DNA of 64,000 bases. It comes from an uncultured Planctomycetia bacterium (GTDB lineage Bacteria > Omnitrophota > Gorgyraeia > Taenaricolales > CAZCCH01). The position numbers and the translations under genes are program-made. Below, one piece after another: positions 7,164-56,664 of this stretch (within the stretch, counting starts at the first letter, position 1; each line of letters starts with the position of its first letter). The stretch is taken from the NCBI GenBank assembly GCA_964497315.1, contig CAZCCH010000002.1, positions 17,519-81,518 on the forward strand, read 5' to 3'. The notes beneath the pieces are model-generated. The model searched no databases. It worked only from the letters and a program-made list of their open reading frames with translations, and was not told the origin of the DNA.

Positions 7164-7171
7164 TTTTTACA

Positions 7172-8260
7172 TTAACGTAACTTTAATGTTGCAAGGCTTA
7201 CTAAAGCTAAAATTACTGCAATTATCCAAAATCTAACTATCACCTTTGACTCTGACAAGCCCTTTAGCTGAAAATGGTGATGTATGGGAGCCATTAAAAA
7301 GGGTCTCCTGCCTCTAAATTTAAAAGAGGCAACTTGTATTATTACAGAAAGAGCCTCTACGACAAATATTCCACCTGCTAAGAGCAGCAATAGCTCTTTT
7401 TTTATCAAAACAGCAACTATGCCAATAGCACCGCCTAACGATAAAGAACCTGTGTCCCCCATAAAAACTTGAGCTGGATGAGAGTTGTACCATAAAAATC
7501 CCATAGTTGCCCCAAGCATGGCCGCACAAAACACAGACAATTCTCCAACGCCAGGTACATACGTTATAAAAAGATAATTACTAAAAATGCTATTACCTGC
7601 AATATAGCTTAATACGCAAAATGTAAATGCAACCATTGCCGTACACCCTACAGCTAAACCATCTAAGCCATCGGTGATATTGACTGCATTAGATGAACCA
7701 ACGATTACAAGGACGCAAAACAGCACAAAAAAAGGTCCAAGGTTAATTACCAAGTCCTTCAGAAACGGCAACTCTAACTGTGTTGAAAATTCCGGATTTA
7801 GATAAAGGTATGTACCTATGCTTACGGCCAATATTAACTGCCCAAAAAACTTTGCAAATAAAGATAATCCCTTAGAGCGCTTTTGTATTAACTTCAGGCA
7901 ATCATCAATAAACCCTACAAGACCTAACCACACTGTAGAGGCAAGGACTAAAATGACATATTTATTTGTTAAGTCCGACCAAAGCAGTGTTGTAATAACC
8001 AAAACAGCTAATATTAGAATTCCACCCATTGTTGGAGTGCCTTTTTTATCCTTATGAAGCTCATAGAGCTGTTCTGTGTGTTTCTTACGGATGTATTCAC
8101 CTATATCAAGAAAAGAAAGCATTTTTATAAACACAGGCCCTAAGATGATACTAAGTATAAGGGCTGTTACACTGGCCATAGCAGCCCGAAAGGTTATATA
8201 TCTAAATACATTAAAACCAAACCATAAATCTTTTAACGGGTAGAATAAGTGGTAAAACAT
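7172..8260 (-). CDS. mraY: Phospho-N-acetylmuramoyl-pentapeptide-transferase
   Basis: 362 aa polytopic membrane protein with the MraY signature motifs NAVNITDGLDGLA and HHHF. Confidence 0.9.
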   Translation of the reverse strand: MFYHLFYPLKDLWFGFNVFRYITFRAAMASVTALILSIILGPVFIKMLSFLDIGEYIRKKHTEQLYELHKDKKGTPTMGGILILAVLVITTLLWSDLTNKYVILVLASTVWLGLVGFIDDCLKLIQKRSKGLSLFAKFFGQLILAVSIGTYLYLNPEFSTQLELPFLKDLVINLGPFFVLFCVLVIVGSSNAVNITDGLDGLAVGCTAMVAFTFCVLSYIAGNSIFSNYLFITYVPGVGELSVFCAAMLGATMGFLWYNSHPAQVFMGDTGSLSLGGAIGIVAVLIKKELLLLLAGGIFVVEALSVIIQVASFKFRGRRPFLMAPIHHHFQLKGLSESKVIVRFWIIAVILALVSLATLKLR

Positions 8261-16404: not shown

Positions 16405-16414
16405 ATTTAACTAT

Positions 16415-16490
16415 GGTGGGCAATAGAGGATTCGAACCTCTGACCTCGTGCATGTGAGGCACGCGCGCTAACCGACTGCGCCAATTGCCC
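16415..16490 (-). tRNA. tRNA-Val (anticodon CAC)
   Basis: The reverse complement folds as GGGCAAT/ATTGCCC acceptor, GCGC/GCGC D-stem, CGTGC-CTCACAT-GCACG anticodon arm, AGAGG-TTCGAAT-CCTCT T-arm, and encoded CCA. It is 76 nt. Confidence 0.9.
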
Positions 16491-16508: not shown

Positions 16509-16583
16509 TGGTGGGCCCAGAAGGATTTGAACCTCCGACCAAGTGATTATGAGTCACCTGCGCTACCGCTGCGCTATGGGCCC
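16509..16583 (-). tRNA. tRNA-Met, elongator type (anticodon CAT); tRNA-Ile2(LAU) cannot be excluded
   Basis: The reverse complement folds as GGGCCCA/TGGGCCC acceptor, GCGC D-stem, GGTGA-CTCATAA-TCACT anticodon arm and GGAGG-TTCAAAT-CCTTC T-arm, with encoded CCA. It has no 3xGC anticodon stem, so it is not the initiator. Confidence 0.85.
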
Positions 16584-16640
16584 ATTTAGTAGTGTTTCAG
16601 TAAAATTGGATTATACCAGATTTAGGTAGGGTTGTAAAGG
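16547..16640 (-). repeat. Direct repeat copy 1: tRNA-Met 5' half plus its promoter, duplicated at 21478-21562
   Basis: About 90% identity to 21478-21562. The second copy lacks 11 nt (CCGCTGCGCTA) in the D-arm. Confidence 0.85.
16610..16638 (-). promoter_or_regulatory. Sigma70 promoter of the tRNA-Met/tRNA-Val operon
   Basis: The minus strand reads TTTACA (16638-16633), a 17-nt spacer, then TATAAT (16615-16610), about 25 nt upstream of the tRNA-Met 5' end. Confidence 0.7.
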
Positions 16641-16647
16641 GGGATTT

Positions 16648-16932
16648 TTAGTGTCTTTTGGTGTTTTCGTAGTTCTTTCTTAAAATCCTGATAAATCTAA
16701 TAAGAAGATAAAGAGGGTAATAAATAAATGCTAGCCTGACACCAGCACCAAAAAGCAAAGCAGACATTTTATTATCAAAATAAGGATATGGGTTTTTTAA
16801 AAAGATCTTTGTGAAGTATTCAAAGTGATGTCCTGTTGGAACAGCTATCCATACAAGTGCAATGCTAACAACCATAGCAGCAAAAACAATATAAGCTTCT
16901 CTTTTTATGATTCTTTTTAGTTTTTTATCCAT
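16648..16932 (-). CDS. Small hypothetical membrane protein (two predicted TM helices)
   Basis: 94-aa ORF with host-like low GC and two hydrophobic segments. I recognise no family. Confidence 0.45.
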   Translation of the reverse strand: MDKKLKRIIKREAYIVFAAMVVSIALVWIAVPTGHHFEYFTKIFLKNPYPYFDNKMSALLFGAGVRLAFIYYPLYLLIRFIRILRKNYENTKRH

Positions 16933-16991
16933 TTAAACACTTCCTTATGCAATATTATACTGCTACAAGGATATGGAAGTCAAGGTAGGTA

Positions 16992-19900
16992 TTATGCTCC
17001 TGTTTTTGTTTCTTTATGGGACTTTAGCTCTTCAAGGAGTTGTAGTGTTTCTTCTGTGATATAGTGAATTTCATCAATAAATGCAGGTAGAGTTCTTAGC
17101 TCTGTAGCAATAAGTCTAATTAAGATTAAACCTCTTCTGCGTAATTCTTCGGCTGCTTGCTCAATAGTTTCACAAAGAATAACAAGCTCATATCCTAGGG
17201 CTGCATTTAATATATCAACATCTCCTTTAAGATGTGCAGTGTCTCCTGTTATGGCAATTGTTGTACCTTTAGGTAGTTCTAGGTCTTGTAGTGCAGGTAG
17301 AATGTTTTCACCAAGGGGTGATTCTATTATTAGACCTGTGGATAGGTTTTTAAAGTCACCAAATAGGCTTTCAGCGAAGCGACTCAACAAGCCTTTTATC
17401 TTAGAAACCAATAACTCTGTTACCTTATTACATGCTTCATCAATACCTTCTAGCTCCCTATACCGTTCAGCCTCAGCTCCGTCCATGCCCATAGATGTCA
17501 GTATCGTTTTTATCTGTGGATATCTTTTTCTGACTTCCTTTGCTAATTTCGGACCTGCCTCGCTATCAATTTTACCGGTTTCTTCATCTAGCATATTTAA
17601 ATCTGCTACCATTAAGTGAGGAAGTATTTCTAATTCATCTAATTTCCTTAATGCATCTTGTGGGTTAACTGTCTCAATAACCTTATATCCTTCTTTAGTA
17701 AAACCTCTTACTAATCTCTCTCTCTGATCTCCATCATCTTCTACTAAAAGAATTCTTATAGGTTGTGCTCCATCCTGCTCAGTGAAGCGGGGTCTTTCTC
17801 CAGCTAACCGCTGTTCCGACCTTTCTATGCTGGCGAAAGGTCCATATTCTACATCTAACGGATTTACCTTACCTTTTATCTCACTAAATCTGGTCTCATT
17901 TTCTTCTCTTGGTACTTTTATGGATGGGGGTTCGTTGTTAGGAAAAGGTAAGGGCCAGATGAACCCAAGGTCGTAGAATAATTGCCTTGCCTCATCAGGC
18001 ATAAGGTATTTTAAATATACATATGCTTGAGAATCACCGCCTCCTTTTACACACTGACCGGAAAAGAATTCTGGGACAAAACTCCTCAATCCAGAGGCCA
18101 AAAGTACCATGTCGTTAACTACTATGGCATGAGAGAGCGACGTATATGCAGACCCAAAATGCCTATTATCTTTTGAAGTCTCGTATATAACTTCCAATAA
18201 ACGTCTGAACTTATCTGGGTATTTTTTAGATGATAACGCAATGCAATCGTGAAGTATTTCGTGAAGAATAATCCAGTCAATGTCAATTCCGCCTACCACA
18301 ACAACCCTTTGAAAGGGTCGTCCAAATTCCTTTTCTAAATACTCAAATGACTCCTTATTATGGGTATCGTCTCTGTTTATATATACCGCGGTACTAATAA
18401 TACCCATGGCGTCATATTTTGACAATAACCGCAGAATTTCCTTACAAATTGTTTCGTCTACAATCACCATTAGTCCTGGCTCCAAAAAACCCTCCCTAAC
18501 AATTCCTGTCGGCAAAAACTCCTCAGCCGCAAACAACCTTCTTGCCTTAGTAGTGCTGTGCATTCGCTCGCCGGTTTTTAAATGGTCCTGTCCAGAGCTA
18601 TTACTTTCTGAAAACCTGGCTTCTGCTTCTCGTGCCCTCTCTATTTTTTCATTATCATTCTGCTCAGTGAAGCGGGCCCTGCAGACAAATAATCGCCATT
18701 TGTCTAAAGATATTTCCGGAACTTCAACTATGGGCCTTTCACTATCAGTGTCATTTTCAGTCCTTTCTTTAAACCAGATGCTGCCAAGGACATGGTCTAT
18801 CACCGGTTCTATAGGTACCTCTACCCTTTCAGATTCATTTTCAGGTGAGAAAACTACTGCAGTAGAAATACCTCGATCTTGTTTGTTTCTTAACCAGGTA
18901 ACTACAGTTTGTTTTCTATTATATTCATCACTGGCCATCTCATTTAAATGCTCCACAAGAGACTTCACCAAGTCTACCTCGTGATACTCTACGCCTTCCT
19001 CCTCTATCAATAGCTCTTTAAAAACCTGTTCGGTAGTGGCATCTATAGTCATTCCCAACTCCGTTCTCCTTTTAAAAGCCGCCTTAACGTACTCCATTAC
19101 CAAATCAGGATCTATACCATCATCATCTGCCAATCTTCTTCTAAAATTCTGCAGATAAAACGCGAAGTTCACAATCTCTGCTAAGCTTGGCCTATCAATC
19201 TCTGCCTTATGTAAGGCTCTCCTAATCTTCATTAGTTCGTCTAAGCGTTCAGCTTCTATATCCCATTCTCCATCTAATACATCTTCGAATGATTCTTTGG
19301 CGCGGACATTGCAGGCCTGAACCATTCCCCATGCTGCCTTCATTCTTACTGAAGAATGATTACTTTTATCTTTAAAGATTTCCTCCATGGCTTCATAGCC
19401 ATCATCCTCAAAACGGGCTAACGTATATGCAGCGTGCACATGTTTAGAAGAAGGTGTTAAAAGATGCCCTCTCATAAACTGTACTATTTCTTGAGCTATC
19501 TCCCTCTCTCTCCTGAGCATGGTTAAGGCCTCTGCAGCAAAAAGGGCTACATTTGCATTCCGGCCCACAGCTGCCCTTTTTAAGGCTTCCAGGGAACTGG
19601 GGTCACCTATATAACCTAAGGCTTCAGCTAGCCTGTAACGAAAGTCATCGATTCTTTCAGGCTTGGGCGTATCAGGTTCGTAAGAAGAAATGAGCGCTTC
19701 ATTCAGATGAGGTGCTACTGCAACGCCCTTTCTGACAAAAGAGGACATTGCCTCATGTTGAACATGCGCACTCCTATGGGCCAAGCACCTAAGCAATAAT
19801 CTGAGGGCTTCTTGGTCATCATATCCAGCTACAGTTCTCACAGCTGACACTAATGTGTCTGAATCGCCAGCACCTTCTGCTACAAGAGCTGCAATTGCCA

Positions 19901-21128
19901 ACTCTCGTTCACCATCCTGCTCAGTGAAGCGGGCGGGGGATTTGGTGAAATCTAACATATCATGCGCCTTCGGTGCTGGCGCCTTATCTTTATATCCCAC
20001 AATTCCCTTAAGATAAAACCAACCGTCGCAGCGATCAAGCCCATCTTGGACATGAGTCCAATTACCGCTACGCCCATACCTTTCTCTCTTTATTTTGGTC
20101 AGACCCTTCAGAATACCCTTCAGCGTATTCCCGTTACCTAAAGGTGCAAAATTCTCTCGGAGCATATTATATAATAATTCCGCTGGAATGTGTGTTTCGT
20201 CCTTAGGGGCTGCCTGACGTAATCTCTCAACCTCTGATCTGTCGATCAGGCCCAGCAAAAATAATCCTCTCAATGTATAAATCGCTGTGCTTGCGCTGCG
20301 CTTACACTCATCAAAGTCTAAATCTGCCCCATAACAGTCAGAAAAAGTCCTCATGACAAAAATGTTTGGGGTCTTGGTTGTAATTTCGTAGCCTCTAAAA
20401 TGCTGCTCAGCTATTTTTCTCTGAATATTGACAAGCTCTATTATTTTACCGCGTTCTCTTCTGGAGGGATCGACATACAAGGCGTATATGTCAATTCTAG
20501 AATCTTCCTCACAAATACCAATGGTCTGTTCAAAAACATAGGGTGCTTCTGCCTTTAATTTTCTGGTGGCGAAATACGCAAAGCTATCTATCGGCATACG
20601 AACCCAATTTGTCTTAAGCAACCTCTCTAAGGGTGCGACTCTCAGACGAATTATAGCAGGTTCGGCATGCCAATACAGCAACACGATATCCTGATCGTCT
20701 AATTCCTTTTCTTCTTGTAATTCCCTTAATGCTTCTCTGACATCCTTGCCCGGCCTTACGGCCAATTCTGCCTTGGGGTTTAACGATTTGTATAGCTTTG
20801 AGCCACGGCCCCCTAACCAAAAACTCGCCTCTACTCTACCTTCCAAAATTGCTTTCTTCTCCCCTAAACTCTCAGCCGTGATAGTGGGGGGATGTTGAGG
20901 TGGACTTGTAGAGTTTTCAATTTTTTGCTCTAGCTGTTCTCCCTGGTTTGGCCGATCTCCTTCCGTAAACCTTGCAGCTAGTTCTCTTGTAAGCTCTTTA
21001 TCTTTTGCTGTGGTATCAGGCCTGAGGGTCTCTTTGGAAGGGGATGCAAGAATATAGTCTACCCCTATCAGTGACATTGTAAATGCCACAAGTAGACATA
21101 ATGATATTATTTTCTTAGTATAGTTCAT
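16992..21128 (-). CDS. Giant multi-domain protein of unknown function. It has an N-terminal signal or anchor, a possible GNAT-like module, PBS-lyase/HEAT repeats, an HExxH-containing module and a C-terminal CheY-like receiver domain plus a conserved about 130-aa C-terminal domain.
   Basis: 1378-aa uninterrupted ORF with GC about 50-53%, against about 40% in the flanking DNA. Hydrophobic N-terminus (KKIISLCLLVAFTMSLIG). HEAT-like repeats (EALGYIGDPSSLEALKRAA). HEILH motif. REC-like signature IRILLVEDDG...MVADLNM...KTILTS. The motif [AP]RFTEQDG recurs three to four times in-frame. Confidence 0.85.
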   Translation of the reverse strand: MNYTKKIISLCLLVAFTMSLIGVDYILASPSKETLRPDTTAKDKELTRELAARFTEGDRPNQGEQLEQKIENSTSPPQHPPTITAESLGEKKAILEGRVEASFWLGGRGSKLYKSLNPKAELAVRPGKDVREALRELQEEKELDDQDIVLLYWHAEPAIIRLRVAPLERLLKTNWVRMPIDSFAYFATRKLKAEAPYVFEQTIGICEEDSRIDIYALYVDPSRRERGKIIELVNIQRKIAEQHFRGYEITTKTPNIFVMRTFSDCYGADLDFDECKRSASTAIYTLRGLFLLGLIDRSEVERLRQAAPKDETHIPAELLYNMLRENFAPLGNGNTLKGILKGLTKIKRERYGRSGNWTHVQDGLDRCDGWFYLKGIVGYKDKAPAPKAHDMLDFTKSPARFTEQDGERELAIAALVAEGAGDSDTLVSAVRTVAGYDDQEALRLLLRCLAHRSAHVQHEAMSSFVRKGVAVAPHLNEALISSYEPDTPKPERIDDFRYRLAEALGYIGDPSSLEALKRAAVGRNANVALFAAEALTMLRREREIAQEIVQFMRGHLLTPSSKHVHAAYTLARFEDDGYEAMEEIFKDKSNHSSVRMKAAWGMVQACNVRAKESFEDVLDGEWDIEAERLDELMKIRRALHKAEIDRPSLAEIVNFAFYLQNFRRRLADDDGIDPDLVMEYVKAAFKRRTELGMTIDATTEQVFKELLIEEEGVEYHEVDLVKSLVEHLNEMASDEYNRKQTVVTWLRNKQDRGISTAVVFSPENESERVEVPIEPVIDHVLGSIWFKERTENDTDSERPIVEVPEISLDKWRLFVCRARFTEQNDNEKIERAREAEARFSESNSSGQDHLKTGERMHSTTKARRLFAAEEFLPTGIVREGFLEPGLMVIVDETICKEILRLLSKYDAMGIISTAVYINRDDTHNKESFEYLEKEFGRPFQRVVVVGGIDIDWIILHEILHDCIALSSKKYPDKFRRLLEVIYETSKDNRHFGSAYTSLSHAIVVNDMVLLASGLRSFVPEFFSGQCVKGGGDSQAYVYLKYLMPDEARQLFYDLGFIWPLPFPNNEPPSIKVPREENETRFSEIKGKVNPLDVEYGPFASIERSEQRLAGERPRFTEQDGAQPIRILLVEDDGDQRERLVRGFTKEGYKVIETVNPQDALRKLDELEILPHLMVADLNMLDEETGKIDSEAGPKLAKEVRKRYPQIKTILTSMGMDGAEAERYRELEGIDEACNKVTELLVSKIKGLLSRFAESLFGDFKNLSTGLIIESPLGENILPALQDLELPKGTTIAITGDTAHLKGDVDILNAALGYELVILCETIEQAAEELRRRGLILIRLIATELRTLPAFIDEIHYITEETLQLLEELKSHKETKTGA
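17771..17791 (-). repeat. Intragenic 21-bp direct repeat encoding PRFTEQDG (copy 1 of 3)
   Basis: CATCCTGCTCAGTGAAGCGGG is identical to 19913-19933 and differs by one nucleotide from 18657-18677. Confidence 0.8.
18657..18677 (-). repeat. Intragenic 21-bp direct repeat encoding RARFTEQ (copy 2 of 3)
   Basis: CATTCTGCTCAGTGAAGCGGG matches the other two copies at 20 of 21 positions. Confidence 0.8.
19913..19933 (-). repeat. Intragenic 21-bp direct repeat encoding ARFTEQDG (copy 3 of 3)
   Basis: CATCCTGCTCAGTGAAGCGGG is identical to copy 1. Confidence 0.8.
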
Positions 21129-21201
21129 AGAAATGGGATATCCTGCCTTTGTCTTAAGTTAAAATAAAGTATAGCATAAGATTACCCCAAATGCAAGGCT
21201 A

Positions 21202-21260
21202 AAAATCTAGATTTTGTTTTTATTAACAATATTGAGATATAGTGTGTTAATGGGTGGGGC
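21202..21260 (-). promoter_or_regulatory. Conserved upstream module P1 of the 1378-aa gene: putative sigma70 promoter plus perfect 14-bp palindrome AAAATCTAGATTTT
   Basis: A block of about 55 bp (ATCTAGATTTTGTTTTTATTAACAATATTGAGATATAGTGTGTTAATGGGTGGG) is conserved almost identically upstream of the 858-aa gene at 24291-24345. In gene orientation it reads TTAACA, then about 18 nt, then TTAATA, followed by the palindrome. Confidence 0.5.
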
Positions 21261-21400
21261 AAAAGATATAGTGAGCTAGGTGGTGGGGTATCCTCAAAAT
21301 AGTGGTAGAGGGGTACAATTTGTAACAATCCTTATAAAAGCGGTAGGGGTACCCTTAGTGTCCATATAGGTTGTCCATACTACATTAAAATTGGTTAAGA

Positions 21401-21457
21401 CAAAAAAACTCCTTAAGTCCTTTAGAAATAATGTATTTATAAAGAATATAAGGAGTT
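21401..21457 (-). terminator. Hairpin plus T-tract (rho-independent terminator-like) downstream of the 858-aa gene and the pseudo-tRNA
   Basis: On the minus strand AACTCCTTA pairs with TAAGGAGTT as a 9-bp stem around a large AT-rich loop, followed by TTTTT. Confidence 0.45.
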
Positions 21458-21477
21458 ATAAAAACTTACTTGGTCGG

Positions 21478-21562
21478 TTTATGAGTCACCTGCGCTATGG
21501 GCCCAGTTAATAGGGTTTCAGTGAAATTGAATTATACCAGATTTAGGTGGGGTTGTAAAGGC
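21478..21562 (-). repeat. Direct repeat copy 2: truncated pseudo-tRNA-Met (5' half to the anticodon loop, D-arm deletion) plus an intact copy of the tRNA promoter
   Basis: It retains TTTACA-17-TATAAT (21559-21531) and GGGCCCATAGCGCAGGTGACTCATAA. Sequence diverges after the anticodon loop. The 3' half, T-arm and CCA are absent. Confidence 0.85.
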
Positions 21563-21631
21563 GGAAATATTGCCTGTGGTAAGAAAAATCCATTTGCTTT
21601 TCTTGCTAAAAAGAGATAGGGTGTAGGCGGT

Positions 21632-24208
21632 TTATATAGCTCTTGCAGCTGCTTCAAAAGCATCCATTAGGCGTCTTTCATCTTTAGGAGGATACTGTAT
21701 GCCTATTGTATCTATCATGGCTTTAAGCCATTGTGCAATAGCTGTATAGTTACGCTCTATAAGGGGTATTATTTCAATATTAGCTATTTGTTTAAGCTTT
21801 TGTGTGGTATAAAGAAGGAATTTTGGTCTGGCATTGGGGAGTTTTTCTTTTATGTATCTAGTTAGTCTATTCACTAATTCTCCTATAGCAGCTATAGTAT
21901 TACCTTCATATTCTTCTAAGCTTACTACAATTGCTCCAGCAGCAAAACGTGCTGCTTCTTTTTTAGTATTGACTAAAAATGCAAGAGGTGCTTCAGTGAA
22001 GTGTGCTCCTAAAATAGCTAGTTCCTTAGCATCTGTGCAGTCTAGGATACCAACATTTGGTCTTGAGATGTTTGGCGTTGCTTTGTATTGGAAGTCTATT
22101 TTGTTTAGGGTGTTTGTTATTTCAGTGAAGCGGGAAGATATGTGTTCCGAAGCTGCTACTCCAGCAAAGAAATCAAGCACCTTAGAGCGGCTATTTGGAT
22201 GTTGCTGTCCAGGTATCTCATCTTCTCTTCCAAGTATCCACTTAGCAAAGGCATCTGCAAGGCTGAATGCTCTTCCTTGCTTTACAGCAGCTTCAGGAAG
22301 AAGTTCACTTGCATAGTCTTGCATGTAATAAGGAACTCCCTCTCTGGAGTAATCACCTGATAAAATTGCTCCTGCCAACTGCACATCTTCTGGGACTACA
22401 CCGCTTCCTTCATTCCAAATATGAAAGCCTATTCTACAGGCAAAATTTTCCGGTGTCATGCCTTTATAAACATCTGCTGTTCTTGAGCTGGGAGGGTAGA
22501 GCCGTCGTTCTCCAGGCTTATATGGAACTAAAGCTAATCGGCTTACAAAATATGTATTAATTCTTCCTACAATATCTTGAAGTGGTTTCGTTTCATCATC
22601 AGAAAGACCGGCTTCAGCCGCAGCCTGTGGGACATAAAACACTCCAAAAGGATTCCTGGCGATATCCGCTAAGTTCTGTGCTGAAGCTTGGTTAAATCCT
22701 TCACAATCTTCAATGGCATCAATTGCCCCAGTTGCACGAGTAGGTGATTCGGCCATTAGTGCTGCCACGGCATCCCGTAAAGCAGTGCGGTCACCTTCAG
22801 CAACTTCAATCCCTTCTCTTTTAGTAAAATCAGAAATAACTCTACGTACCAAAGAGGCTGTATTCGGTTCATGTTGTTCTAGGGTGGTGTAGCTTCCTTC
22901 TGCAAAGCGGGTAGGGGTCACATCAATCCATTCAGTTGTGTCAAACGGCTGACTGCCTTCCTCCCGACCAAGATAAATATGGAAACCTACACCAGCCCCC
23001 CTTGTTGATACACTTAAATCCCCGGACACAAACTCTGATGGTGATTCTTTAGAAAAACCTACGCTTATATCTCCGCAATGTTTGATTTCACCTCTTTGTA
23101 ATTCCCCTTTAACCTTATCAGCATTTGCTAATATTCTAAGAAAATCTTCTCGATACGTTGTAAATAATAAACTAGTTGGATCTAAGCTAAAAAAAGCTAC
23201 ACCGTCATCATCTAGCTGTTCTCCAAACCGTTTATCTGGGTAATTAACACTAAATCCTACATCTGGTACATCAGGATTGAAAGCCTGCCGGATTTGAACC
23301 ACAATTCTAGTTCTATTAAAATTTATCCAAGCCCTTGGACCATAGAATTCACGTCCTCCAATCCTCTCGATCTCCTCTAATATTCTGGTAGCTACTGCTA
23401 CTTGCACCTCAGGTGATAGCCTTTCAGCTGGTTTAGCTTCAGGAGGGGTTTGCTCGGACTGAGCACCAGCAAGTTCTTTAATAAAGTCATCAGCTATTGC
23501 CATTCTTTCAGCATCAAGATCAGGTGTGCTACGTAGAGCCCTTAAAGTAGCTAAAGCTTTTTCTTTCTGGCGCAGTTCAAGTTGGACTACTGCCAAGTGC
23601 AACCTAGAATCAACAACCACATTCATTGACTCAGAATGCGATGAGCTCCTAGCAACTTCAATAGCCTTCTCAAAAGCATCAGCAGCTCTTTGTGAGTCAT
23701 TAGATTCTGCATGAATTCTACCAATGCATCTATTGGCTTCCGCAAGAGCAAATATGAGCTTTGGGCTCAATCTGTCCTCTCCAAACAACCGACTACCTAA
23801 TTCGTCCGCTGCAGTTAAGGCTTCTAGGGCTTCTTCATTGTCCTGATATTCCATATAACGTCCTTCTTTTGCTCTAAAAAGAAGGCGTCCCCTTGTAAAG
23901 TGGGCCTCCATAAGATGTGGTTCAGAAAGATCTCCCATATTAATAGCTTCATCAAAGAGCTCTATCGCTCTTCCATAGGATTCTACTCCTTCACTAGCTA
24001 AATCTTTGGCCATATCAAAGTAAGCTTCTGCATCTCGTGCTTTCCCATCATCCGCCCCTAATGCTTCTTCTCTAAACCTAGCTGCTATAGGAGTTTTCCT
24101 TGTCATAGGAGTCCTTAAAGCCCAGACATACTGTGACATTGTGGTATTAATAAACATACATACCACTAATAGTGCTATTATTTTGGTTAGGGATTTGTGG
24201 GATAACAT
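21632..24208 (-). CDS. Large secreted-type protein of unknown function, paralogous in its C-terminal domain and motifs to the 1378-aa protein. It has an N-terminal signal peptide and a TPR-like N-terminal region.
   Basis: 858-aa ORF with GC about 55%. Signal-like N-terminus (KIIALLVVCMFINTTMSQYVWA). RF[TA]E motifs are present (ARFREE, TRFAEG, SSRFTEITN). The C-terminal roughly 120 aa align with the 1378-aa protein C-terminus: SRFTEITNTLNK...ILGAHF aligns with SRFAESLFGDFKNL...ALGYEL. Confidence 0.85.
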   Translation of the reverse strand: MLSHKSLTKIIALLVVCMFINTTMSQYVWALRTPMTRKTPIAARFREEALGADDGKARDAEAYFDMAKDLASEGVESYGRAIELFDEAINMGDLSEPHLMEAHFTRGRLLFRAKEGRYMEYQDNEEALEALTAADELGSRLFGEDRLSPKLIFALAEANRCIGRIHAESNDSQRAADAFEKAIEVARSSSHSESMNVVVDSRLHLAVVQLELRQKEKALATLRALRSTPDLDAERMAIADDFIKELAGAQSEQTPPEAKPAERLSPEVQVAVATRILEEIERIGGREFYGPRAWINFNRTRIVVQIRQAFNPDVPDVGFSVNYPDKRFGEQLDDDGVAFFSLDPTSLLFTTYREDFLRILANADKVKGELQRGEIKHCGDISVGFSKESPSEFVSGDLSVSTRGAGVGFHIYLGREEGSQPFDTTEWIDVTPTRFAEGSYTTLEQHEPNTASLVRRVISDFTKREGIEVAEGDRTALRDAVAALMAESPTRATGAIDAIEDCEGFNQASAQNLADIARNPFGVFYVPQAAAEAGLSDDETKPLQDIVGRINTYFVSRLALVPYKPGERRLYPPSSRTADVYKGMTPENFACRIGFHIWNEGSGVVPEDVQLAGAILSGDYSREGVPYYMQDYASELLPEAAVKQGRAFSLADAFAKWILGREDEIPGQQHPNSRSKVLDFFAGVAASEHISSRFTEITNTLNKIDFQYKATPNISRPNVGILDCTDAKELAILGAHFTEAPLAFLVNTKKEAARFAAGAIVVSLEEYEGNTIAAIGELVNRLTRYIKEKLPNARPKFLLYTTQKLKQIANIEIIPLIERNYTAIAQWLKAMIDTIGIQYPPKDERRLMDAFEAAARAI

Positions 24209-24290
24209 ACTACCTGCCTTTGTCTTATAGAGGTTTTTGAGTTATTTTTAGTAAGTATACCATAAGATTAGCAAAAAAGCAAGGGTAAAT

Positions 24291-24345
24291 ATCTAGATTT
24301 TGTTTTTATTAACAACATTGAGATGTAGTGTGTTAAGGGGTGGGA
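24291..24345 (-). promoter_or_regulatory. Conserved upstream module P2 of the 858-aa gene, homologous to P1 with an ATCTAGAT palindrome core
   Basis: See the P1 entry. Identity with 21206-21260 is over 90%. Confidence 0.5.
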
Positions 24346-24381
24346 TTCTAAGAAACTCTTAAGTCGCTAAATAAAAAAGGG

Positions 24382-26130
24382 TTAGAACACCTTCTCTTCT
24401 GCTAGGGTTACATCAAGAAAGCTCTTTAATCTGCGACTTCTGGTAGGATGTCTTAATTTCCTTAATGCCTTGGCTTCTATTTGCCTTACTCTTTCTCTTG
24501 TTACGTTGAATATACTGCCCACTTCTTCTAATGTCCTTGGATAGCCATCGCCTATACCAAATCTAAGCCTAATGACCTTCTTTTCCCTGTCTGTTAAGGT
24601 ACCTAAGACATTTTCCATTTGTTCTTTAAGCATGCTATAGGCAGTGGCATTGGCAGGTGAAATAGCCTTTTTGTCTTCTATAAAATCACCAAAATGTGTA
24701 TCGCCTTCATCCCCAATAGGGGTTTGCAAAGATATAGGCTCTTGGGCAATTTTTAAAATACCCCTTACTTTCTCAACAGGCATGCGCATTTCATAAGCTA
24801 TTTCTTCTGGCGTAGGTTCCTTACCATTCTCTTGCACTAACATCCTTGAGACCCTGATAAGCTTATTTATCGTCTCTGTCATATGGACCGGGATACGAAT
24901 TGTCCTTGCTTGGTCGGCTATGGCCCTGGTTATGGCTTGCCTGATCCACCAAGTGGCATAAGTAGAAAATTTATAACCCCTTTTATACTCAAATTTTTCT
25001 ACCGCCTTCATTAAACCAATATTACCTTCCTGTATTAAATCTAGGAATGTTAAACCTCTATTCGTATATTTTTTTGCAATTGAGACAACAAGTCTTAAAT
25101 TTGCCTCTACAAGCTTCCTTTTAGACTTGTTGTAATGCACTTGTTTTCTTCTTACAAGCTTTAATTTCTGCTTTACTTTAGAGCGGGGTTCTCCTAGTTG
25201 TTCCTCAAGAGAGCGAACCTTTTTCTCTAATCTTTGTATCTTACCTCTTACCCTTCTTTTGCGCATACGCTCAATTTCTCTTTTTAGTTTCTCTATTTCT
25301 GCAATGTGCGCATATACATCGGATAACATCTCCTCTACTACCGAAATATTTAAATCTAATTCTTTTACAAGTTGTGCTATTGCAGCTTGTTTTCTTGTGC
25401 GCCTGAGTCTTTGGGTAACAGAAGATATTTTCCTGATAAGTTTACTTTTTTTAAATTTTATCTCGTCATTTATTACTTCATCTGGGTTGCAATTGCCATT
25501 TAAAACCTTATTGGCTACATTTAGGGATAGCTGTTTTGCAATTTTACATTCATATATAGATTCACGAAATACTTCTTCCTTGCTCTCAATATCCTTAGCT
25601 AGTTCTATTTCGGATTCTCGGCTTAAAAGTGGAATTTGCCCCATCTGCCTTAGGTACATCCTAACTGGGTCATCTAACTGAACTACCGGAGTAAATTGCT
25701 TTAATTGCCCTTTCGGTTCCGCTACAATATGAGGTCTCTCATTTTGCGTCTGTGTAGTAGCTTCTTCTGAAGAATCAACAACCTTAATCTTCTCATTACC
25801 AAGTATAACAAATACTTTATCTATTACCTTAGAAGAGATAATGTTTTCTGGTAAGATATCGTTTATCTGTTCATATGTCAGAAAACCCTTTTCATGACCT
25901 AAGCCAATCAATTTTTTAATATCCTTTGTGTGTTTTTGCTTTTTTTGGCTGCGTATTTTTTTGGTCTTTTTTCTAGGTTTTTTCACCGAAGATCTTGTTC
26001 TTTTAAAGGTTTTTTTGCCTTTAGAAACTTTTATTTTCTTGCCTTTTCTAGAAATCTTTATCTTCTTTCGCTTAAGAACTTTTTTCTTTGGCTTCTGTCT
26101 CTTTTTTCTGGATAGTTTCTTTCTTTTCAT
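24382..26130 (-). CDS. rpoD: RNA polymerase primary sigma factor (sigma-70/RpoD) with an unusual Lys/Arg-rich N-terminal extension of about 70 aa
   Basis: Region 1.2 and a non-conserved region are present. Region 2.4 ([14 protein letters not shown]), region 3 and region 4.2 ([28 protein letters not shown]) are canonical. The N-terminus reads [32 protein letters not shown]... Confidence 0.9.
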
Positions 26131-29851: not shown

Positions 29852-31774
29852 TTATTCAAATGATATGAGTAATTTTATTTTCTGTTCTGACTGATCTATT
29901 TGTTCTGAAAAGGCAAAAAATGGGGCAGACTCTTCAATGCATTGCAAGGCAAGATCCCCTGCAAGTGTATTATCTTCTTTGATAATTACAGGCTTTTCCT
30001 TTAGGTTTCCATCAGGCTCAATTACAAAAGACAATAATACTTCACCTTTTGTTGTTGAGTCTGAATAGTTTTTTCTCAATGTATGAAAGATCTTTTTCCT
30101 TACAGAAGTACAATAATCCGGTTGCTGTAATTTTGCTAATGTAGATTCTAAAAGCGCCTCCCTTCCTCCTTTGACAGGTGCTTGGGCAGGTGTTTTCTTG
30201 GAAGGCTTCTTTTTATCCTTAGACCTAACAAGGCTACGAATACCTCCATTGATACTAGCTTCTTTTTCAGTTAGAGGAATACCTGTTAAAGATTTATCAC
30301 CAGTTATAACATGTGGTGTAAGAAGTATGACTACTTCCTTTTTTGTCTTTGTGTCATCTATGCTTTGAAACATTTTTCCCAACACTGGTATATTAGATAA
30401 AAAAGGAATTCTTTTGGTAGTTTTGTCTTGTTTATCCTTAATCAATCCTGCGATTATTATGCTATTGCCATCTTTGACTAGGACAGTAGTCTCCGCCTCT
30501 GTAGTTGAAACAACAGGAATTTGATTGCCTTCTGCAGTAGTATAGGGAGTACCTGTAGAGCTAACCTCCGGCCTTATCTTCATTGTAACAAAACCCTCTT
30601 CATTTATTGTTGGGGTAACATAGAGTTTTACACCTACATCAACAAATGTCACCTCTTCAGCTGTGGTGGTGGCCTCGTCGCTGGAGACCACAGACTTTGT
30701 AGCGTAAGGTTCTCTTGTACCTATCAATATCTTTGATTCCTGATTATTTACTGCTGTTATCTTTGGAGCAGACAAAGTATTAACATCGCCTATCGTGCTA
30801 AGCAATTCTAAAAACGCAGAATACTCATCTTCAGCGCCTGCTGTGGTACCGCCAGTCATGGTCCCCACCTTTAACACGCCGCTCTTACTTAAATCCAGGC
30901 TTAACTCTTGCCTGAAACTAACATACTTTGTAACGAAATAATCCCAGTCAATGCCCATCTGGAAGCGATCTGATAAATTGACCTCTAAAATTTTTGCTTC
31001 AATAAGTACCTGTAGATCTTTCTGGTCAATTTCTTTTAGGACACTTGCAATCTCTTCTAATTTTACTGGGGTATCTTTTACTACAATCTTATTTGTACGC
31101 TCATCAATGCTGGCATCTCCTAAGTTTTTGGTAAGCATCTCTGTTACCTTAGACAAAATATCTTCTGCCTTTGAATATTTTAAGGTAAATACCTTTGTTT
31201 GAGTCAATATGTCTATTTGGCTTAAAATCTGTTCCATTTCGGCTATCCTAGAGGGCACATCATCTATCATAATGGTATTTGATGCTTCATCTGCCACTAC
31301 TCTTCCTAAGTCAGTCTTAATTTGGCTAAGGGCCTTGCTGGCATCTACTGCGCTTGCATGTTTAAGTTTTATAATCTTAAGTTGCTTTTTACTATGGAAG
31401 CGTTCCCCATATAAAAGCTCATAGTCTCTATCTGTCATTACGTTTATTATGTTACCCCTTTTTTCATATGCAAGGCTGTTAGCAGCTAGAATAAGCTCTA
31501 AGGCATCCCATACATCCACATCCTTTAAAAATATTGTTACCCGCCCTGTAACATTTCTACCTGCTACTATGTTTAGGCCACTTTTCATAGAGATAATCTT
31601 TAAGACATCCAAGATGTCCATTCCCTTTATATCTAGTGAGATCTTCACTTCTGAAACCGGCCTTGTCTGTTTGGGTAGAGGAATCACCTCTTGAGAAAAG
31701 GCTACATTAGCCATAAAGGTAAATATTACAATGCAAATTGTTATTTTAATATTCCACTTATTCATTTCATCCAC
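29852..31774 (-). CDS. gspD: Type II secretion system secretin (GspD) with a C-terminal TonB-C-like extension
   Basis: 640 aa with a signal peptide and N0/N1-type domains. The secretin C-domain reads GNSIIIAGLIKD...IPFLSNIPVLGKMF...VVILLTPHVI. After a Lys-rich linker the last roughly 110 aa (GEVLLSFVIEPDGNLKEKPVIIKEDNTLAGDLALQCIEESAPFFAF) match the TonB C-terminal domain pattern. Confidence 0.8.
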   Translation of the reverse strand: MDEMNKWNIKITICIVIFTFMANVAFSQEVIPLPKQTRPVSEVKISLDIKGMDILDVLKIISMKSGLNIVAGRNVTGRVTIFLKDVDVWDALELILAANSLAYEKRGNIINVMTDRDYELLYGERFHSKKQLKIIKLKHASAVDASKALSQIKTDLGRVVADEASNTIMIDDVPSRIAEMEQILSQIDILTQTKVFTLKYSKAEDILSKVTEMLTKNLGDASIDERTNKIVVKDTPVKLEEIASVLKEIDQKDLQVLIEAKILEVNLSDRFQMGIDWDYFVTKYVSFRQELSLDLSKSGVLKVGTMTGGTTAGAEDEYSAFLELLSTIGDVNTLSAPKITAVNNQESKILIGTREPYATKSVVSSDEATTTAEEVTFVDVGVKLYVTPTINEEGFVTMKIRPEVSSTGTPYTTAEGNQIPVVSTTEAETTVLVKDGNSIIIAGLIKDKQDKTTKRIPFLSNIPVLGKMFQSIDDTKTKKEVVILLTPHVITGDKSLTGIPLTEKEASINGGIRSLVRSKDKKKPSKKTPAQAPVKGGREALLESTLAKLQQPDYCTSVRKKIFHTLRKNYSDSTTKGEVLLSFVIEPDGNLKEKPVIIKEDNTLAGDLALQCIEESAPFFAFSEQIDQSEQKIKLLISFE

Positions 31775-31799
31775 CCCCTTGAAAAACTATAAATCTTTT

Positions 31800-32495
31800 T
31801 TATAATGACAAAAATATACTTTGATCCTCAAAGGTAAGTTTAACCCTACCATTTGCTATTTCCTCAACAGTCATATCATTAATGCTATCACCTACTTGTA
31901 AGAAAAAACTCTTATTCGTCTTTGAATCTTCAATTATAGCCTGCTGTGGTTCATCTGTCATAATACCTAGTAGTTTTAAATCTTTAGATAAATCTCCGAT
32001 TTTTATCTTTGGTTCTGTCTTTACTTGCTTGGGTCTTTCTGCAATTAAGGGTTTAAAAAGTTGCCTTGCCTTAATCTGTTCTGAATAATAGCTAAAAGGC
32101 TTCTTCTCTGTTATTAAAGTATCTGTATGTTTAGAGAAATCGGATATTCTCCTTGTTACTAATCCTTCCTGGGTTGTAACCTCCGAAACAGCTGCGAGGT
32201 TTTCCTTTTTAGACTTTGAAAAACGAGCATGGTTTATTGCCAAGCTCAGCAGTGTAATTGCAAACATAATACAGAATGCAACCAATAGTATTTTGTTTGT
32301 AAAAAGATGCCAATCAAAATTTTCTGGGAGTTTTTCAATTCTTGCCGCTTTTTTAGGTGGGCTTTTTTGTTTTTGTTCAGGCTGTGGCTTTGGTTTTGGT
32401 TTAGCAGCTTGGGTTTCTTTAGCCTTGCCTGCAGCTGCCTTTGAACCTTTTATTAATCTCAATAATTTTTCTTCAGGGCTTAAGCTTCTTTCCAT
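31800..32495 (-). CDS. GspB/ExeB-like or PilP/GspC-HR-like secretin-interacting protein
   Basis: 231 aa. Basic Pro/Lys-rich N-terminal region, a single TM segment and a C-terminal beta domain resembling the 62744-63268 product (AII.D...VGD.I.D..V.EI..G.V.L). It lies between the exeA-like gene and the secretin gene. Confidence 0.4.
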   Translation of the reverse strand: MERSLSPEEKLLRLIKGSKAAAGKAKETQAAKPKPKPQPEQKQKSPPKKAARIEKLPENFDWHLFTNKILLVAFCIMFAITLLSLAINHARFSKSKKENLAAVSEVTTQEGLVTRRISDFSKHTDTLITEKKPFSYYSEQIKARQLFKPLIAERPKQVKTEPKIKIGDLSKDLKLLGIMTDEPQQAIIEDSKTNKSFFLQVGDSINDMTVEEIANGRVKLTFEDQSIFLSL

Positions 32496-32516
32496 TTTTG
32501 TATTCTGCCTTTTTGT

Positions 32517-33383
32517 TTAATCTGGTTGGGTCATGACTATGCGTTTATATTGATCTTGATCCCAACCTTGTTTTAACTCTTCTACTATTAAATCTGAAAT
32601 TATCTTCTCATCTACAAAATCCTGTCCTTTCATTACTATTGTCTCAAGGGCATTATGACAAAGTATTGATATCCTGCGCGGATAACCCTGGGTATGTCTG
32701 TATATGAGTTTTACTGCACTCTCTGAGAAAAGTTGCTGACTGCTTCCATAACCTGCCTGGCGCAATCTAAAATTTATCATTTCCTTTGTTTCGTTTTCAT
32801 CTAAAGGATTTATAATATACTTTAGGCTAATTCTATCTACAAAGTTCCTTATCTTTCTAATCCTTGGAAACAGTTCCATCTGAGCCATAAGGACTAACTG
32901 AAGAAGTTTATATTCATTAGTCTCATAGTTAAGTAGGGTCCTTAATGCTTCCAACATAGACGGTTTTAGTTTCTGACCTTCATCAATTAATAACACTATA
33001 GTTTTATTTTCATCAACGCCTTTTTGGAATAGATGCCTTTCTATAGCTTCTTTATAATCTAGGGTTGACCTGTATAAGGGTGTTACCCCAAACATCCTTG
33101 CTAGGCTTGACCAAAATTGGAATTCAGACTTATAGCTGGGATCTAAAATCATATGAAATACAAAATCAGGTTCGCTGTTGAATGCCTGCAGGAGCCTTCT
33201 GGAGAGAGTAGTCTTACCTGTACCAACGTCTCCTAATACAACATTTAAGCCTCTTCTAAGTCTTATTGAGATTTCCAACCTATGGAGTGCGGAATCATGT
33301 CCTGAGGAACGATAGAAAAATTCAGGGTCAGGACTTGTAGAAAAAGGTTCTTTTTCTAGGTTTAATATTTTATAGTAGCTCAT
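32517..33383 (-). CDS. ExeA/GspA-like AAA ATPase, short form lacking the peptidoglycan-binding domain
   Basis: 288 aa with Walker A GDVGTGKTT and Walker B LLIDEGQ. It is in the COG3267 family. Confidence 0.7.
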   Translation of the reverse strand: MSYYKILNLEKEPFSTSPDPEFFYRSSGHDSALHRLEISIRLRRGLNVVLGDVGTGKTTLSRRLLQAFNSEPDFVFHMILDPSYKSEFQFWSSLARMFGVTPLYRSTLDYKEAIERHLFQKGVDENKTIVLLIDEGQKLKPSMLEALRTLLNYETNEYKLLQLVLMAQMELFPRIRKIRNFVDRISLKYIINPLDENETKEMINFRLRQAGYGSSQQLFSESAVKLIYRHTQGYPRRISILCHNALETIVMKGQDFVDEKIISDLIVEELKQGWDQDQYKRIVMTQPD

Positions 33384-33603
33384 TCTTTAAGGTCTCTTTT
33401 ATCTCTTTAATGGATTTCTTCTCCAGTCTTAATTTTCTTATCTTCTTAAGTAATTCCACAGTGGCATCATCAAAATATCTAAAATTAGTCTCATTGCTTC
33501 TTCCGATTTCTTTAATCAAACCTATTTTTAAGTAATACTTTAGTGTATATATAGAGTATCCAGTAAGTCCTGCTAAATCCTTAATTAGATAAATGTTTCG
33601 CAT
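33370..33603 (-). CDS. Mini MerR-family HTH DNA-binding protein
   Basis: 77 aa (IKDLAGLTGYSIYTLKYYLKIGLI is a MerR-type helix-turn-helix). It overlaps the exeA-like start by 14 nt. Confidence 0.55.
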   Translation of the reverse strand: MRNIYLIKDLAGLTGYSIYTLKYYLKIGLIKEIGRSNETNFRYFDDATVELLKKIRKLRLEKKSIKEIKETLKNELL

Positions 33604-33763
33604 AGGCTCTTATTCCTGTACTCTCTAAGTAGATAGTATATAATTATTCTGCTCTCTATGTAGAGAGTGAACTATATTCAAATATAGCAAATTCCTTAGT
33701 AATTGTCAAGTAAAATTTCATAATGAGGTGATTTAAAAGGGGTTAGAAAAATGGAAGGTATTC

Positions 33764-34300: not shown

Positions 34301-34326
34301 GGTTAATGATCTCTTTGCATGACTTG

Positions 34327-35805: not shown

Positions 35806-35807
35806 TT

Positions 35808-38751: not shown

Positions 38752-38752
38752 A

Positions 38753-39970: not shown

Positions 39971-39976
39971 TTACTT

Positions 39977-45652: not shown

Positions 45653-45680
45653 GCTTCGACCATTTTTTAACAAAAATCAA

Positions 45681-47036: not shown

Positions 47037-47040
47037 ATAA

Positions 47041-47964: not shown

Positions 47965-47970
47965 AACATT

Positions 47971-50169: not shown

Positions 50170-50173
50170 AAAA

Positions 50174-51028: not shown

Positions 51029-51034
51029 AAATCA

Positions 51035-56639: not shown

Positions 56640-56664
56640 ACCCTTGTAAGTCTATATATTTAAA

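Follow-up and report, generated by a model that had tools for sequence, protein, structure and literature searches.

A lineage-specific insertion between rpoD and tRNA-Met in an Omnitrophota bacterium encodes two members of a putative mosaic family of exported multi-module proteins

What are the two large genes that stand between rpoD and tRNA-Met in an uncultivated bacterium, how are their products built, and how did they come to lie there? They were found in a 64,000-nt stretch of DNA (positions 17,519 to 81,518 of contig CAZCCH010000002.1, assembly GCA_964497315.1; hereafter the window), where an earlier note made from the sequence alone had described a compositionally foreign tandem array of two giant genes sharing a promoter module and a recurring motif at apparent domain boundaries. 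The pair is indeed tandem and co-oriented on the minus strand, its sizes counting as large rather than giant:

16992..21128, minus strand: protein 1 gene, an open reading frame (ORF) of 1378 aa (leader, module 1, HEAT, HExxHD, receiver, C-terminal domain type A)
21632..24208, minus strand: protein 2 gene, an ORF of 858 aa (leader, TPR-containing module, module X, C-terminal domain type B)

Judged by RpoD, whose best matches are Omnitrophota metagenome-assembled genomes (MAGs; 55–63% identity), the host is an uncultivated Omnitrophota bacterium. We favour, with modest confidence, the reading that the products of the two genes belong to a mosaic family, exported and composed of several modules, with a conserved in-frame junction as the site of module exchange. 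The family would be restricted to this lineage and count four genes, two here and two in tandem at a second locus. Each would have a promoter block private to the family and a leader that ends in [IL]AARFxE, after which unrelated modules would follow in a row, each preceded by the junction. Paralogues would swap modules by recombination at the junction, giving a shuffling set of combinations. Protein 1 would hold module 1, HEAT repeats, an anthrax-lethal-factor-like HExxHD zincin, a receiver and C-terminal domain A, and protein 2 a TPR module, module X and C-terminal domain B. Their site of action most likely lies beyond the cytoplasm, where they would serve as effectors or surface proteins with several domains, and the RFxE peptide is probably a linker recognition or processing element.

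The RFxE junction and mosaic breakpoints

Word-indexed searches covering 5.8e9 proteins returned for protein 1 only itself and one weak histidine kinase match (36 bits, 5% of the query), and for protein 2 only itself and P0004. The latter, here called L84_A (its true ORF probably 1129 aa), lies at the second locus in tandem beside L84_B (1584 aa), which matched itself alone. The contig bearing this second locus was found together with the present contig in two independent assemblies (JGI 3300009105 and ENA ERZ23499057), its flanks agree with the window in composition (r = 0.945), and the two loci most likely share one genome. Neither protein 1 nor protein 2 fits a described family in Pfam, NCBIfam or the 5.8e9-protein search, in line with the first impression that they could not be placed.

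The recurring motif noticed earlier is enriched and marks module boundaries. In their 2,238 aa, proteins 1 and 2 together carry 11 copies of RF.E where 0.72 would be expected (Poisson P = 3e-10), and RF[TSAR]E has a single occurrence in all other six-frame translations of the 64 kb. The four paralogues together hold 18 RFxE copies, which sit in polar, Pro-rich stretches ~10–50 residues before each recognisable domain. Those in proteins 1 and 2 include:

20961..20975, minus strand: leader-type RFxE of protein 1, AARFTE, codons AGG TTT
19920..19934, minus strand: junction PARFTE, residue 400, GCC CGC TTC ACT GAG
18663..18677, minus strand: junction RARFTE, residue 819, GCC CGC TTC ACT GAG
18606..18620, minus strand: secondary RFxE, EARFSE, residue 838, AGG TTT
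17880..17894, minus strand: secondary RFxE, ETRFSE, residue 1080, AGA TTT
17778..17792, minus strand: junction RPRFTE, residue 1114, CCC CGC TTC ACT GAG; 22 nt identical to the residue-400 copy
17370..17384, minus strand: junction LSRFAE, residue 1250, AGT CGC TTC GCT GAA; start of C-terminal domain A
24068..24082, minus strand: leader-type RFxE of protein 2, AARFRE, AGG TTT; 89% DNA identity to L84_A ends here
22898..22912, minus strand: junction PTRFAE, ACC CGC TTT; DNA identity to L84_A begins here
22121..22135, minus strand: junction SSRFTE, TCC CGC TTC ACT GAA; identity to L84_A ends and C-terminal domain B begins

Stretches such as KSPARFTEQDGER and IAARFREEALG span the motif. The copies separate by codon. 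Across the 10 copies of the junction class (consensus peptide [APST]-R-F-[TSA]-E, consensus DNA NCC-CGC-TTC-NCN-GAR), Arg is encoded by CGC in 9/10, Phe by TTC in 9/10 and the preceding residue by an NCC codon in 9/9, compared with family-wide usages of 10%, 24% and 20%, respectively (binomial P = 9e-9, 2e-5 and 5e-7); with the copies reduced to 7 independent groups to correct for common descent, P for the CGC bias is still 6e-6. The residue that the NCC codon specifies varies (A, P, S or T). The 8 leader and secondary copies use AGG, AGA, CGG or CGT and then TTT, with CGC in 0/8 and TTC in 0/8. Three junctions of protein 1 share 17–22 identical nt, and the four sites of CCCGCTTC in the 64 kb (0.64 expected) all lie in these genes, in frame and at junctions. 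Since RFxE is conserved across different codons (AGG TTT in leaders, CGC TTC at junctions), it is under selection as a peptide.

Three further segments are needed to follow how the paralogues relate to one another:

22136..22897, minus strand: module X of protein 2, ~residues 438–691; 80% nt and 61% aa identity to L84_A (protein 2 residues 430–725 against L84_A residues 663–956)
16995..17369, minus strand: C-terminal domain type A of protein 1; 33–38% aa identity to L84_A
21635..22120, minus strand: C-terminal domain type B of protein 2; 26–27% aa identity to L84_B

Along the DNA of protein 2 and L84_A, the leaders are 89% identical up to the AGGTTT of the leader motif, where identity ends; it then jumps from background to 70–97% exactly at CCCGCTT (22911) and is back at background right after the next TCCCGCTTC (22134–22120). 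These sharp breakpoints, together with nucleotide conservation beyond what the peptide needs, argue for module exchange by recombination at the junction, and repeated recombination, by gene conversion or crossover, would be the simplest explanation. A homologous C-terminal domain shared by proteins 1 and 2, as first proposed, was rejected: BLASTP found nothing and hhalign gave E = 0.058.

A different origin of the internal motifs is suggested by proteins of another lineage (GC content 0.49) that carry ALAP[QKRP]S.F right after the signal peptide. One of these, P0006, has an internal SALAPQSEF, and its downstream sequence matches P0008 after the post-signal-peptide motif of the latter; the three tandem genes of an array at L104 474–14980 all begin with a signal peptide followed by ALAPxS or CLAPKS, and tandem arrays of large genes recur among relatives. 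The P0006/P0008 pattern supports gene fusion as one source of internal motifs; as a parallel in which distant relatives follow the same logic with another motif, it also speaks for the reading we favour. Our proteins might likewise be relics of formerly separate exported genes fused in frame, their internal RFxE copies being leader leftovers with no role in recombination or processing, and it agrees with this that leader and internal motifs encode the same peptide. We nevertheless regard such an origin, the main rival to our reading, as doubtful, firstly because independent leftovers would be expected to be leader-like and mutually variable, whereas the internal copies share a separate set of codons (NCC CGC TTC), unlike the four leader copies (AGG/CGT TTT), and are identical over long runs at the three protein 1 junctions. 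Secondly, at either end of module X the change in identity coincides exactly with the junction, so a later exchange is required and one old fusion alone does not suffice. Fusion would thus appear to leave both the separate codon class and the later exchanges of this family unexplained.

Several observations touch on the motif more loosely. The reverse complement of the junction contains GAAGCGG, which resembles Chi, and the idea of a genome-wide Chi-like site was rejected, the 8-mer occurring nowhere else in the 64 kb. Viral contigs gave 13 matches to the 17-nt junction, one each, in unrelated higher-GC phage genes; several of these chance matches (L088–L100) lie in frame in a conserved phage motif, ...PPVE...G[IL][AST]RFTEQ[AS]F.G..., that is unrelated to the family, and the viral contigs held no relatives of protein 2. 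Proteins of the ALAPxS lineage are P0005, P0006, P0008, P0011, P0014 and P0020, and the L104 array adjoins two CHAT (caspase-like) protease genes on the opposite strand. GGIDLR flanks the HExxHD module or ends the protein in P0016 (residues 891, 1250 and 1302), P0009 (574) and P0027 (302), and may be a third lineage-specific junction or tail motif; the Omnitrophota genome locus that carries P0009 is broken by a run of N. In the literature library searched, RFTEQDG, GGIDLR and ALAPQS are mentioned in no paper.

Promoter, leader and modules

Export and joint regulation of the family are suggested by features ahead of the modules:

21167..21258, minus strand: family promoter block upstream of protein 1 (AAAATCTAGATTTT, TTGCAT-17-TATACT, TG extension)
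24253..24344, minus strand: family promoter block upstream of protein 2, 89% identical to the protein 1 copy
20973..21128, minus strand: leader of protein 1, residues 1–52, from sequence reading (KK, 17-residue hydrophobic stretch, DYILA/SPS, ETLRP; the slash marks the AxA-like site)

The shared upstream block had been put at about 55 nt with an operator-like palindrome; the block is real and measures 92 nt, and the palindrome, perfect upstream of protein 1, is degenerate in the three other family promoters. The consensus of the block over the four genes is AAAA-N3-AGAT-N-TT, a weak -35 and TGnTATACT. The block, which can be written AAAANNNAGATNTT-N22-23-TATGNTATACT, has 2 matches in the window against 0 expected; it precedes all four family genes, including both at the second locus, where there is no tRNA, and is absent from 173 unrelated loci. 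The shared regulatory module proposed earlier is thereby supported, as a block common to the family. Just upstream of the protein 1 block, 21235–21350 holds 4–5 direct repeats of an ACCCC[AT]CC-type element, of which a single copy stands upstream of protein 2 (~24330–24345).

Each of the four N-termini shows a basic n-region, then a hydrophobic core (hydropathy maxima 2.4–3.3; 2.64 at residues 7–21 of protein 1), an AxA-like site of the form [DEQ]Y.[WL][AS] (for example VWA/L, AWA/L or AWS/Q), LR(T)P and [IL]AARFxE. As part of the favoured reading, and held at the same modest confidence, all four would be Sec-exported proteins with a private promoter block of sigma-70 type. Near the leaders, the family promoter block and the leader of L84_A are separated by ~300 nt of AAAGGATAG[AG]C-like repeats (L084 4614–4910), which are in frame with the long ORF 4747–8136 and give it an odd basic N-terminal extension of 60 residues. 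The element [ST/H]-L-R-[PLI] follows shortly after the signal peptide in protein 1 (residues 33–37), L84_B, P0007, P0028, P0015 and P0017 and may be a wider leader signature of such exported proteins.

A possible export route had been seen in a type II secretion system (T2SS) nearby, and a T2SS-like cluster does lie at 29852–41689, with GspD, an ExeA-like ATPase, PilM/N-type proteins, GspK, J, F and E, and small ORFs at the positions of the remaining pseudopilins; CvpA, NIF3, dnaG and rpoD stand between it and protein 2. Giant genes of Omnitrophota have been described beside T2SS-like loci, with signal peptides and suspected post-translational cleavage (bioRxiv 10.1101/2023.11.21.568195).

Behind its leader, protein 1 reads as a succession of modules:

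19932..20960, minus strand: module 1, residues 57–399, possibly with a GNAT-like core; 11 distant relatives in multi-domain proteins
18678..19919, minus strand: HEAT-repeat module, ~residues 404–817 (Pfam)
17943..18524, minus strand: core of the HExxHD module, residues 869–1062, zincin-like, undescribed family
18246..18263, minus strand: HEILHD motif, residues 956–961
17385..17777, minus strand: receiver (CheY-like) domain (Pfam Response_reg; DD 1131–1132, Asp1176)

Two of these modules, HEAT and receiver, exceed Pfam gathering scores, as the earlier description had anticipated. Segment 400–818 matches HEAT_2 (PF13646; 46.2 bits, cut-off 27.7) and HEAT_PBS (PF03130; 29.3 bits, cut-off 20.9), and residues 1126–1225 match Response_reg (PF00072; 33.4 bits, cut-off 30.2), with which several NCBIfam response-regulator models agree; read in sequence, the receiver shows LLVEDD, MVADLNM (Asp1176), ILTSMG and CNKV. 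The HEILH motif is likewise present, at residues 956–960. A Pfam search of each inter-motif segment with E up to 1, as had been proposed, yielded HEAT and TPR matches and nothing more, the TPR matches of protein 2 lying below the gathering score. PADLOC gave a weak generic HEAT-ARM match alone (E = 2e-5, 20 bits), the other four proteins matching nothing.

For the remaining parts, an exhaustive phmmer search with residues 1–1113 of protein 1 against 1.84e9 cluster representatives (E <= 1e-3) returned 38 matches, of which module 1 was found in 11 proteins, the HExxH module in 13 and HEAT repeats in the remainder. Relatives of the two new modules occupy variable positions in host proteins of 175–5800 aa, one of them annotated from a Candidatus Omnitrophota MAG. 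In module 1 (phmmer span ~residues 84–395) the GNAT hints are weak, yet all fall at the same place. In the HExxHD module H97, E98, H101 and D102 are invariant in 13 sequences, and protein 1 has Ser before FFSG, at a position that is mostly acidic; the module's fold match to lethal factor and the PPEPs is moderate and Foldseek against PDB was not significant. Searches with individual modules and profiles found no match to either module among Pfam or PDB sequences, nor did the HExxHD module match any peptidase-related Pfam family at E <= 1. For residues 819–1378 of protein 1, the single-sequence AlphaFold2 model was unusable (pLDDT 36.8). By sequence comparison, module 1 and the zincin-like HExxHD module define two undescribed domain families.

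No canonical phospho-acceptor residue is missing from the receiver, scaffolds made of HEAT and TPR repeats are typical of the cytoplasm, and protein 1 has a hydrophobic stretch of 17 residues, which is long for a signal peptide. The stretch might therefore be a membrane anchor, with HEAT, TPR and receiver domains facing the cytoplasm as scaffolds of two-component signalling. We think this very unlikely, as no histidine kinase or output domain lies in or beside the proteins and, in all four, Lys/Arg precede the hydrophobic stretch and an AxA-like site follows it, from which an N-in orientation with the bulk of the protein exported is predicted.

The HExxHD module also raises the question of processing. 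Exported proteins might be polyproteins cut at RFxE, in cis and in trans, by the predicted zincin or by another protease. The motif lies in polar, Pro-rich linkers ahead of domains, its peptide is conserved across different codons, and it also follows the signal peptide, as a common maturation site would; the invariant HExxHD of protein 1 and the lethal-factor/PPEP-like fold fit as well. PPEPs cleave repeated short motifs in proteins encoded by neighbouring genes (PMC8610288), and cleavage has been proposed for large Omnitrophota proteins (bioRxiv 10.1101/2023.11.21.568195). Attractive as it would be as an extension of the favoured reading, we hold this unlikely all the same: relatives of the HExxHD module occur in RFxE-free proteins, 3/4 of the family proteins are without the module, and the fold match is moderate, with Foldseek not significant. 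A combined version, in which the junction would serve two purposes, seems to us improbable: in the DNA its NCC-CGC-TTC core would allow modules to be cut out, put in and swapped between family genes as in-frame cassettes, and in the protein it would be the place of cleavage into separate effectors by the embedded lethal-factor-like zincin. If it were true, ALAPxS.F and GGIDLR as analogues would point to a general design rule for modular exported proteins in Omnitrophota and relatives, and the junction would give cleavage-site information for the giant proteins of the phylum.

Exchange at the junction between exported paralogues, the reading we prefer, has its own points of weakness. It draws on four genes from one essentially clonal population (protein 1 has a strain variant with one substitution), and both loci are placed in one genome as the likeliest case. 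All contigs show the same arrangement, with no structural variant of the locus, and no recombinant intermediate was observed, as the population is clonal. Sharp breakpoints could also result from one fusion followed by unequal divergence rates of the modules. The distant module relatives are without RFxE, so that deep conservation does not speak for a role of the motif. Signal peptides were called by eye and hydropathy, a canonical receiver domain outside the cytoplasm is unexpected, and Pfam and NCBIfam gave no known secretion, toxin or adhesin domain.

Origin of the insertion between rpoD and tRNA-Met

The two genes and one small ORF are the sole genes of the interval between rpoD and tRNA-Met, whose remaining features and flanks are as follows:

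24382–26130: rpoD
21479..21565, minus strand: copy of the tRNA-Met promoter (TTTACA-17-TATAAT, TG extension) and tRNA positions 1 to ~38, a pseudo-tRNA
21400..21457, minus strand: terminator-like hairpin and U7 run after the tRNA fragment (fold energy -22.5 kcal/mol, z = -2.7)
16954–16983: promoter-like site of ORF94, near-consensus TTGACT-18-TATAAT
16648..16932, minus strand: ORF94, small hydrophobic protein of 94 aa, between protein 1 and tRNA-Met
16509..16644, minus strand: genuine tRNA-Met, gene at 16509–16583 and promoter at 16610–16638
16414–16490: tRNA-Val, next after tRNA-Met

Comparison of synteny, which had been recommended, shows the cassettes to be absent from all 33 related loci in which rpoD still adjoins tRNA-Met. 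Nine Omnitrophota genome loci have the order rpoD, ~4–150 nt, tRNA-Met, tRNA-Val and a CT398-like gene, and with the 24 metagenome loci that contain both flanking genes (rpoD and CT398-like) the rpoD-to-tRNA-Met gap spans ~4–230 nt. In the related loci the stretch that separates rpoD from the CT398-like gene (end to start) measures 324–1058 nt, with tRNA-Met always inside; the corresponding distances here are 7,798 nt from rpoD to tRNA-Met and 7,978 nt to the CT398-like gene. Because rpoD and tRNA-Met adjoin without an insert in 33/33 related loci, we interpret the 7.8 kb as a lineage-specific insertion. Another 7 Omnitrophota loci, with other genes after rpoD or too short, held no motif-rich ORF. 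An identical locus (100%) occurs on a 114.5-kb JGI contig and in other assemblies. In a scan of metagenomes, the best match to the CT398-like flank gene had 51% identity; in the absence of any closer relative, intermediate states of the locus are not visible.

Each unit had been said to carry a copy of the tRNA-Met promoter and 5' half. One such copy is real, at 21479–21565; the "other copy" is the genuine tRNA-Met gene. The fragment, 91% identical to 16569–16644, lies after protein 2 and upstream of the intact tRNA-Met, has an 11-nt internal deletion between two GCGCA repeats, and is not called as a tRNA by ARAGORN or Rfam, the latter finding two tRNAs and nothing else in the region. At 21469–21479, after ...CTCATAA, stands ACCGACCAAGT, the reverse complement of tRNA positions ~41–50 (16536–16545), a micro-inversion at the duplication junction. 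The two repeated elements have diverged similarly, the promoter block to 89% identity and the tRNA promoter and 5' part to 91%.

As promoter and 5' tRNA part are repeated, with the truncated copy upstream of the intact gene, tandem duplication is the origin we prefer. The pair would have entered an otherwise conserved block of rpoD, tRNA-Met, tRNA-Val and CT398-like gene; it was then most likely expanded by a tandem duplication that began a little upstream of the promoter block and reached the anticodon loop of tRNA-Met. Such a duplication yields precisely the observed layout and leaves the promoter and 5'-tRNA pseudo-copy; the coding parts would have been replaced afterwards.

Capture as a genomic island, that is, a foreign mobile element integrated twice and site-specifically into tRNA-Met, would account for the absence of the 7.8 kb from all related loci examined and for the partial tRNA copy at its flank. 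Integrase-borne elements, however, restore and duplicate the 3' part of a tRNA, whereas here the promoter and 5' part are duplicated. Neither the interval (Pfam, NCBIfam) nor the other window genes scanned against Pfam (for those at 12.8–16.4 kb, precomputed Pfam hits) contained an integrase, recombinase or transposase, no viral relatives were found, and the family promoter also drives two genes at the tRNA-free, unrelated second locus. Of the suggestion that cassettes were captured or duplicated at the tRNA locus, the accessory, lineage-specific insertion is supported and capture by a mobile element is not.

Base composition bears on the same question. A GC content of 50–57% had been stated for the two genes; measured values are 42.0% (protein 1) and 41.7% (protein 2) against 36.8% for the window, and their richest 300-nt stretch reaches 50%. 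In the sliding-window and codon-position analysis the excess sits in codon positions 1 and 2, with GC1 (0.53–0.56) and GC2 (0.38–0.43) raised relative to neighbours, while GC3 (0.358 and 0.267 for proteins 1 and 2) is inside or at the edge of the range of 40 neighbouring genes (0.26–0.35). Tetranucleotide usage of the genes correlates with that of the remaining window at r = 0.855. Relative to neighbouring genes, Ala, Glu, Arg and Asp are raised and Lys and Ile lowered in the two proteins. "Compositionally foreign" as stated is thus not supported, GC3 and tetranucleotide pattern being host-like; what differs is the amino-acid composition, whose bias is real. Given native GC3, raised GC1 and GC2 and a matching amino-acid bias, we attribute the GC excess to protein composition, and the case demonstrates that higher GC can stem from amino-acid composition and not from recent transfer.

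The composition carries no fresh foreign signature and fits either functional constraint or an old transfer with ameliorated third positions. GC1, GC2 and amino-acid differences could still be the slowly ameliorating trace of a GC-richer donor, and relatives of the modules do lie on contigs of 49–53% GC, but the host-like third positions and tetranucleotides count against an island, which we consider quite unlikely overall.

Some features of the interval stand apart from this argument. The copied tRNA promoter matches the consensus at 11/12 positions, and the candidate role of driving protein 1 was rejected, as the terminator-like hairpin intervenes; with the hairpin and its U7 run following, it probably yields only a short transcript. 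Copied promoter, 5' tRNA fragment and hairpin (21400–21565, minus strand) could give a short orphan RNA of ~110 nt. ORF94 has no family match in Pfam and is kept on every contig carrying the locus.

Known systems and neighbouring features

Exported proteins with a demarcation motif are known from other bacteria. CdiA (VENN) and Rhs (PxxxxDPxGL) proteins have a conserved demarcation motif, one junction with a single C-terminal toxin behind it, and a cognate immunity gene; their export depends on partners of their own (CdiB, type VI secretion system). The present family resembles them in a short in-frame motif at which unrelated downstream modules swap and identity breaks, and in motif-coding DNA conserved enough to serve as a recombination site, a likeness of analogy and not of homology. 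It differs in having up to five junctions per protein rather than one, in the absence of a toxin domain (Pfam, NCBIfam, PADLOC), in a small downstream ORF after protein 1 only, and in an export that appears to use a plain Sec leader, without FHA or Rhs-YD repeats, CdiB or VgrG/PAAR in the proteins or their neighbours.

MARTX toxins carry several effector modules in one exported polypeptide, with a strain-mosaic repertoire and Leu-containing linkers. Unrelated modules strung in one exported polypeptide, a mosaic repertoire and possible processing recall these toxins; the family proteins are 3–5 times smaller, Pfam and NCBIfam gave no RTX repeats or cysteine protease domain, there is no type I secretion system, and the junction is a defined peptide and DNA motif. 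From the M34/ATLF group (lethal factor, PPEP-1/2/3; PMC8610288) the HExxHD module differs in having no Pfam or PDB sequence match and in forming part of larger multi-domain proteins from uncultivated bacteria, PPEPs being free-standing enzymes of Firmicutes.

Lineage-specific DNA beside a tRNA with a partial tRNA repeat at the flank is shared with tRNA-associated genomic islands, from which the locus departs in the repeated 5' part and promoter, the lack of an integrase, native third positions and the micro-inversion at the repeat junction. Omnitrophota are widespread, uncultivated and thought to be host-dependent or predatory. With the giant genes of this phylum the family has in common signal peptides, unannotatable sequence and a nearby T2SS-like cluster; those genes are ~10–60 times longer and lie directly after the secretion locus, and no shared domains were found (bioRxiv 10.1101/2023.11.21.568195). 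By comparison with these systems, what would be new is a lineage-specific modular family, of the already known kind of modular or polymorphic exported proteins with a demarcation motif.

The large exported proteins of Omnitrophota are almost wholly unannotated and suspected of being cleaved (bioRxiv 10.1101/2023.11.21.568195). The locus provides a small, tractable model: four proteins of 0.9–1.6 kaa, a defined junction at breakpoints and domain boundaries, and a candidate protease. If the motif is a recombination site, a processing site or both, it would supply a concrete parsing rule for modular proteins of the phylum and illustrate the assembly of new multi-domain effectors.

Elsewhere in the window, the true compositional outlier is a plus-strand cluster at 43147–52270, oriented opposite to nearly all other window genes, where GC falls to 0.28–0.33 over 46–52 kb. 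It encodes glycosyltransferases, a PMT-like transferase, a B12-radical SAM enzyme, methyltransferases, a CDP-alcohol phosphatidyltransferase and an NTP-transferase. A second cluster, resembling T2SS or type IV pili, occupies 54570–63920 on the minus strand with a PilT-like ATPase, GspF, GspE, a secretin, a PilO/GspM-like protein and pseudopilin-sized ORFs; it includes an apparently truncated GspE-like ORF of 288 aa (MshEN and the start of T2SSE) and is preceded by tRNA-Ala at 54495–54568.

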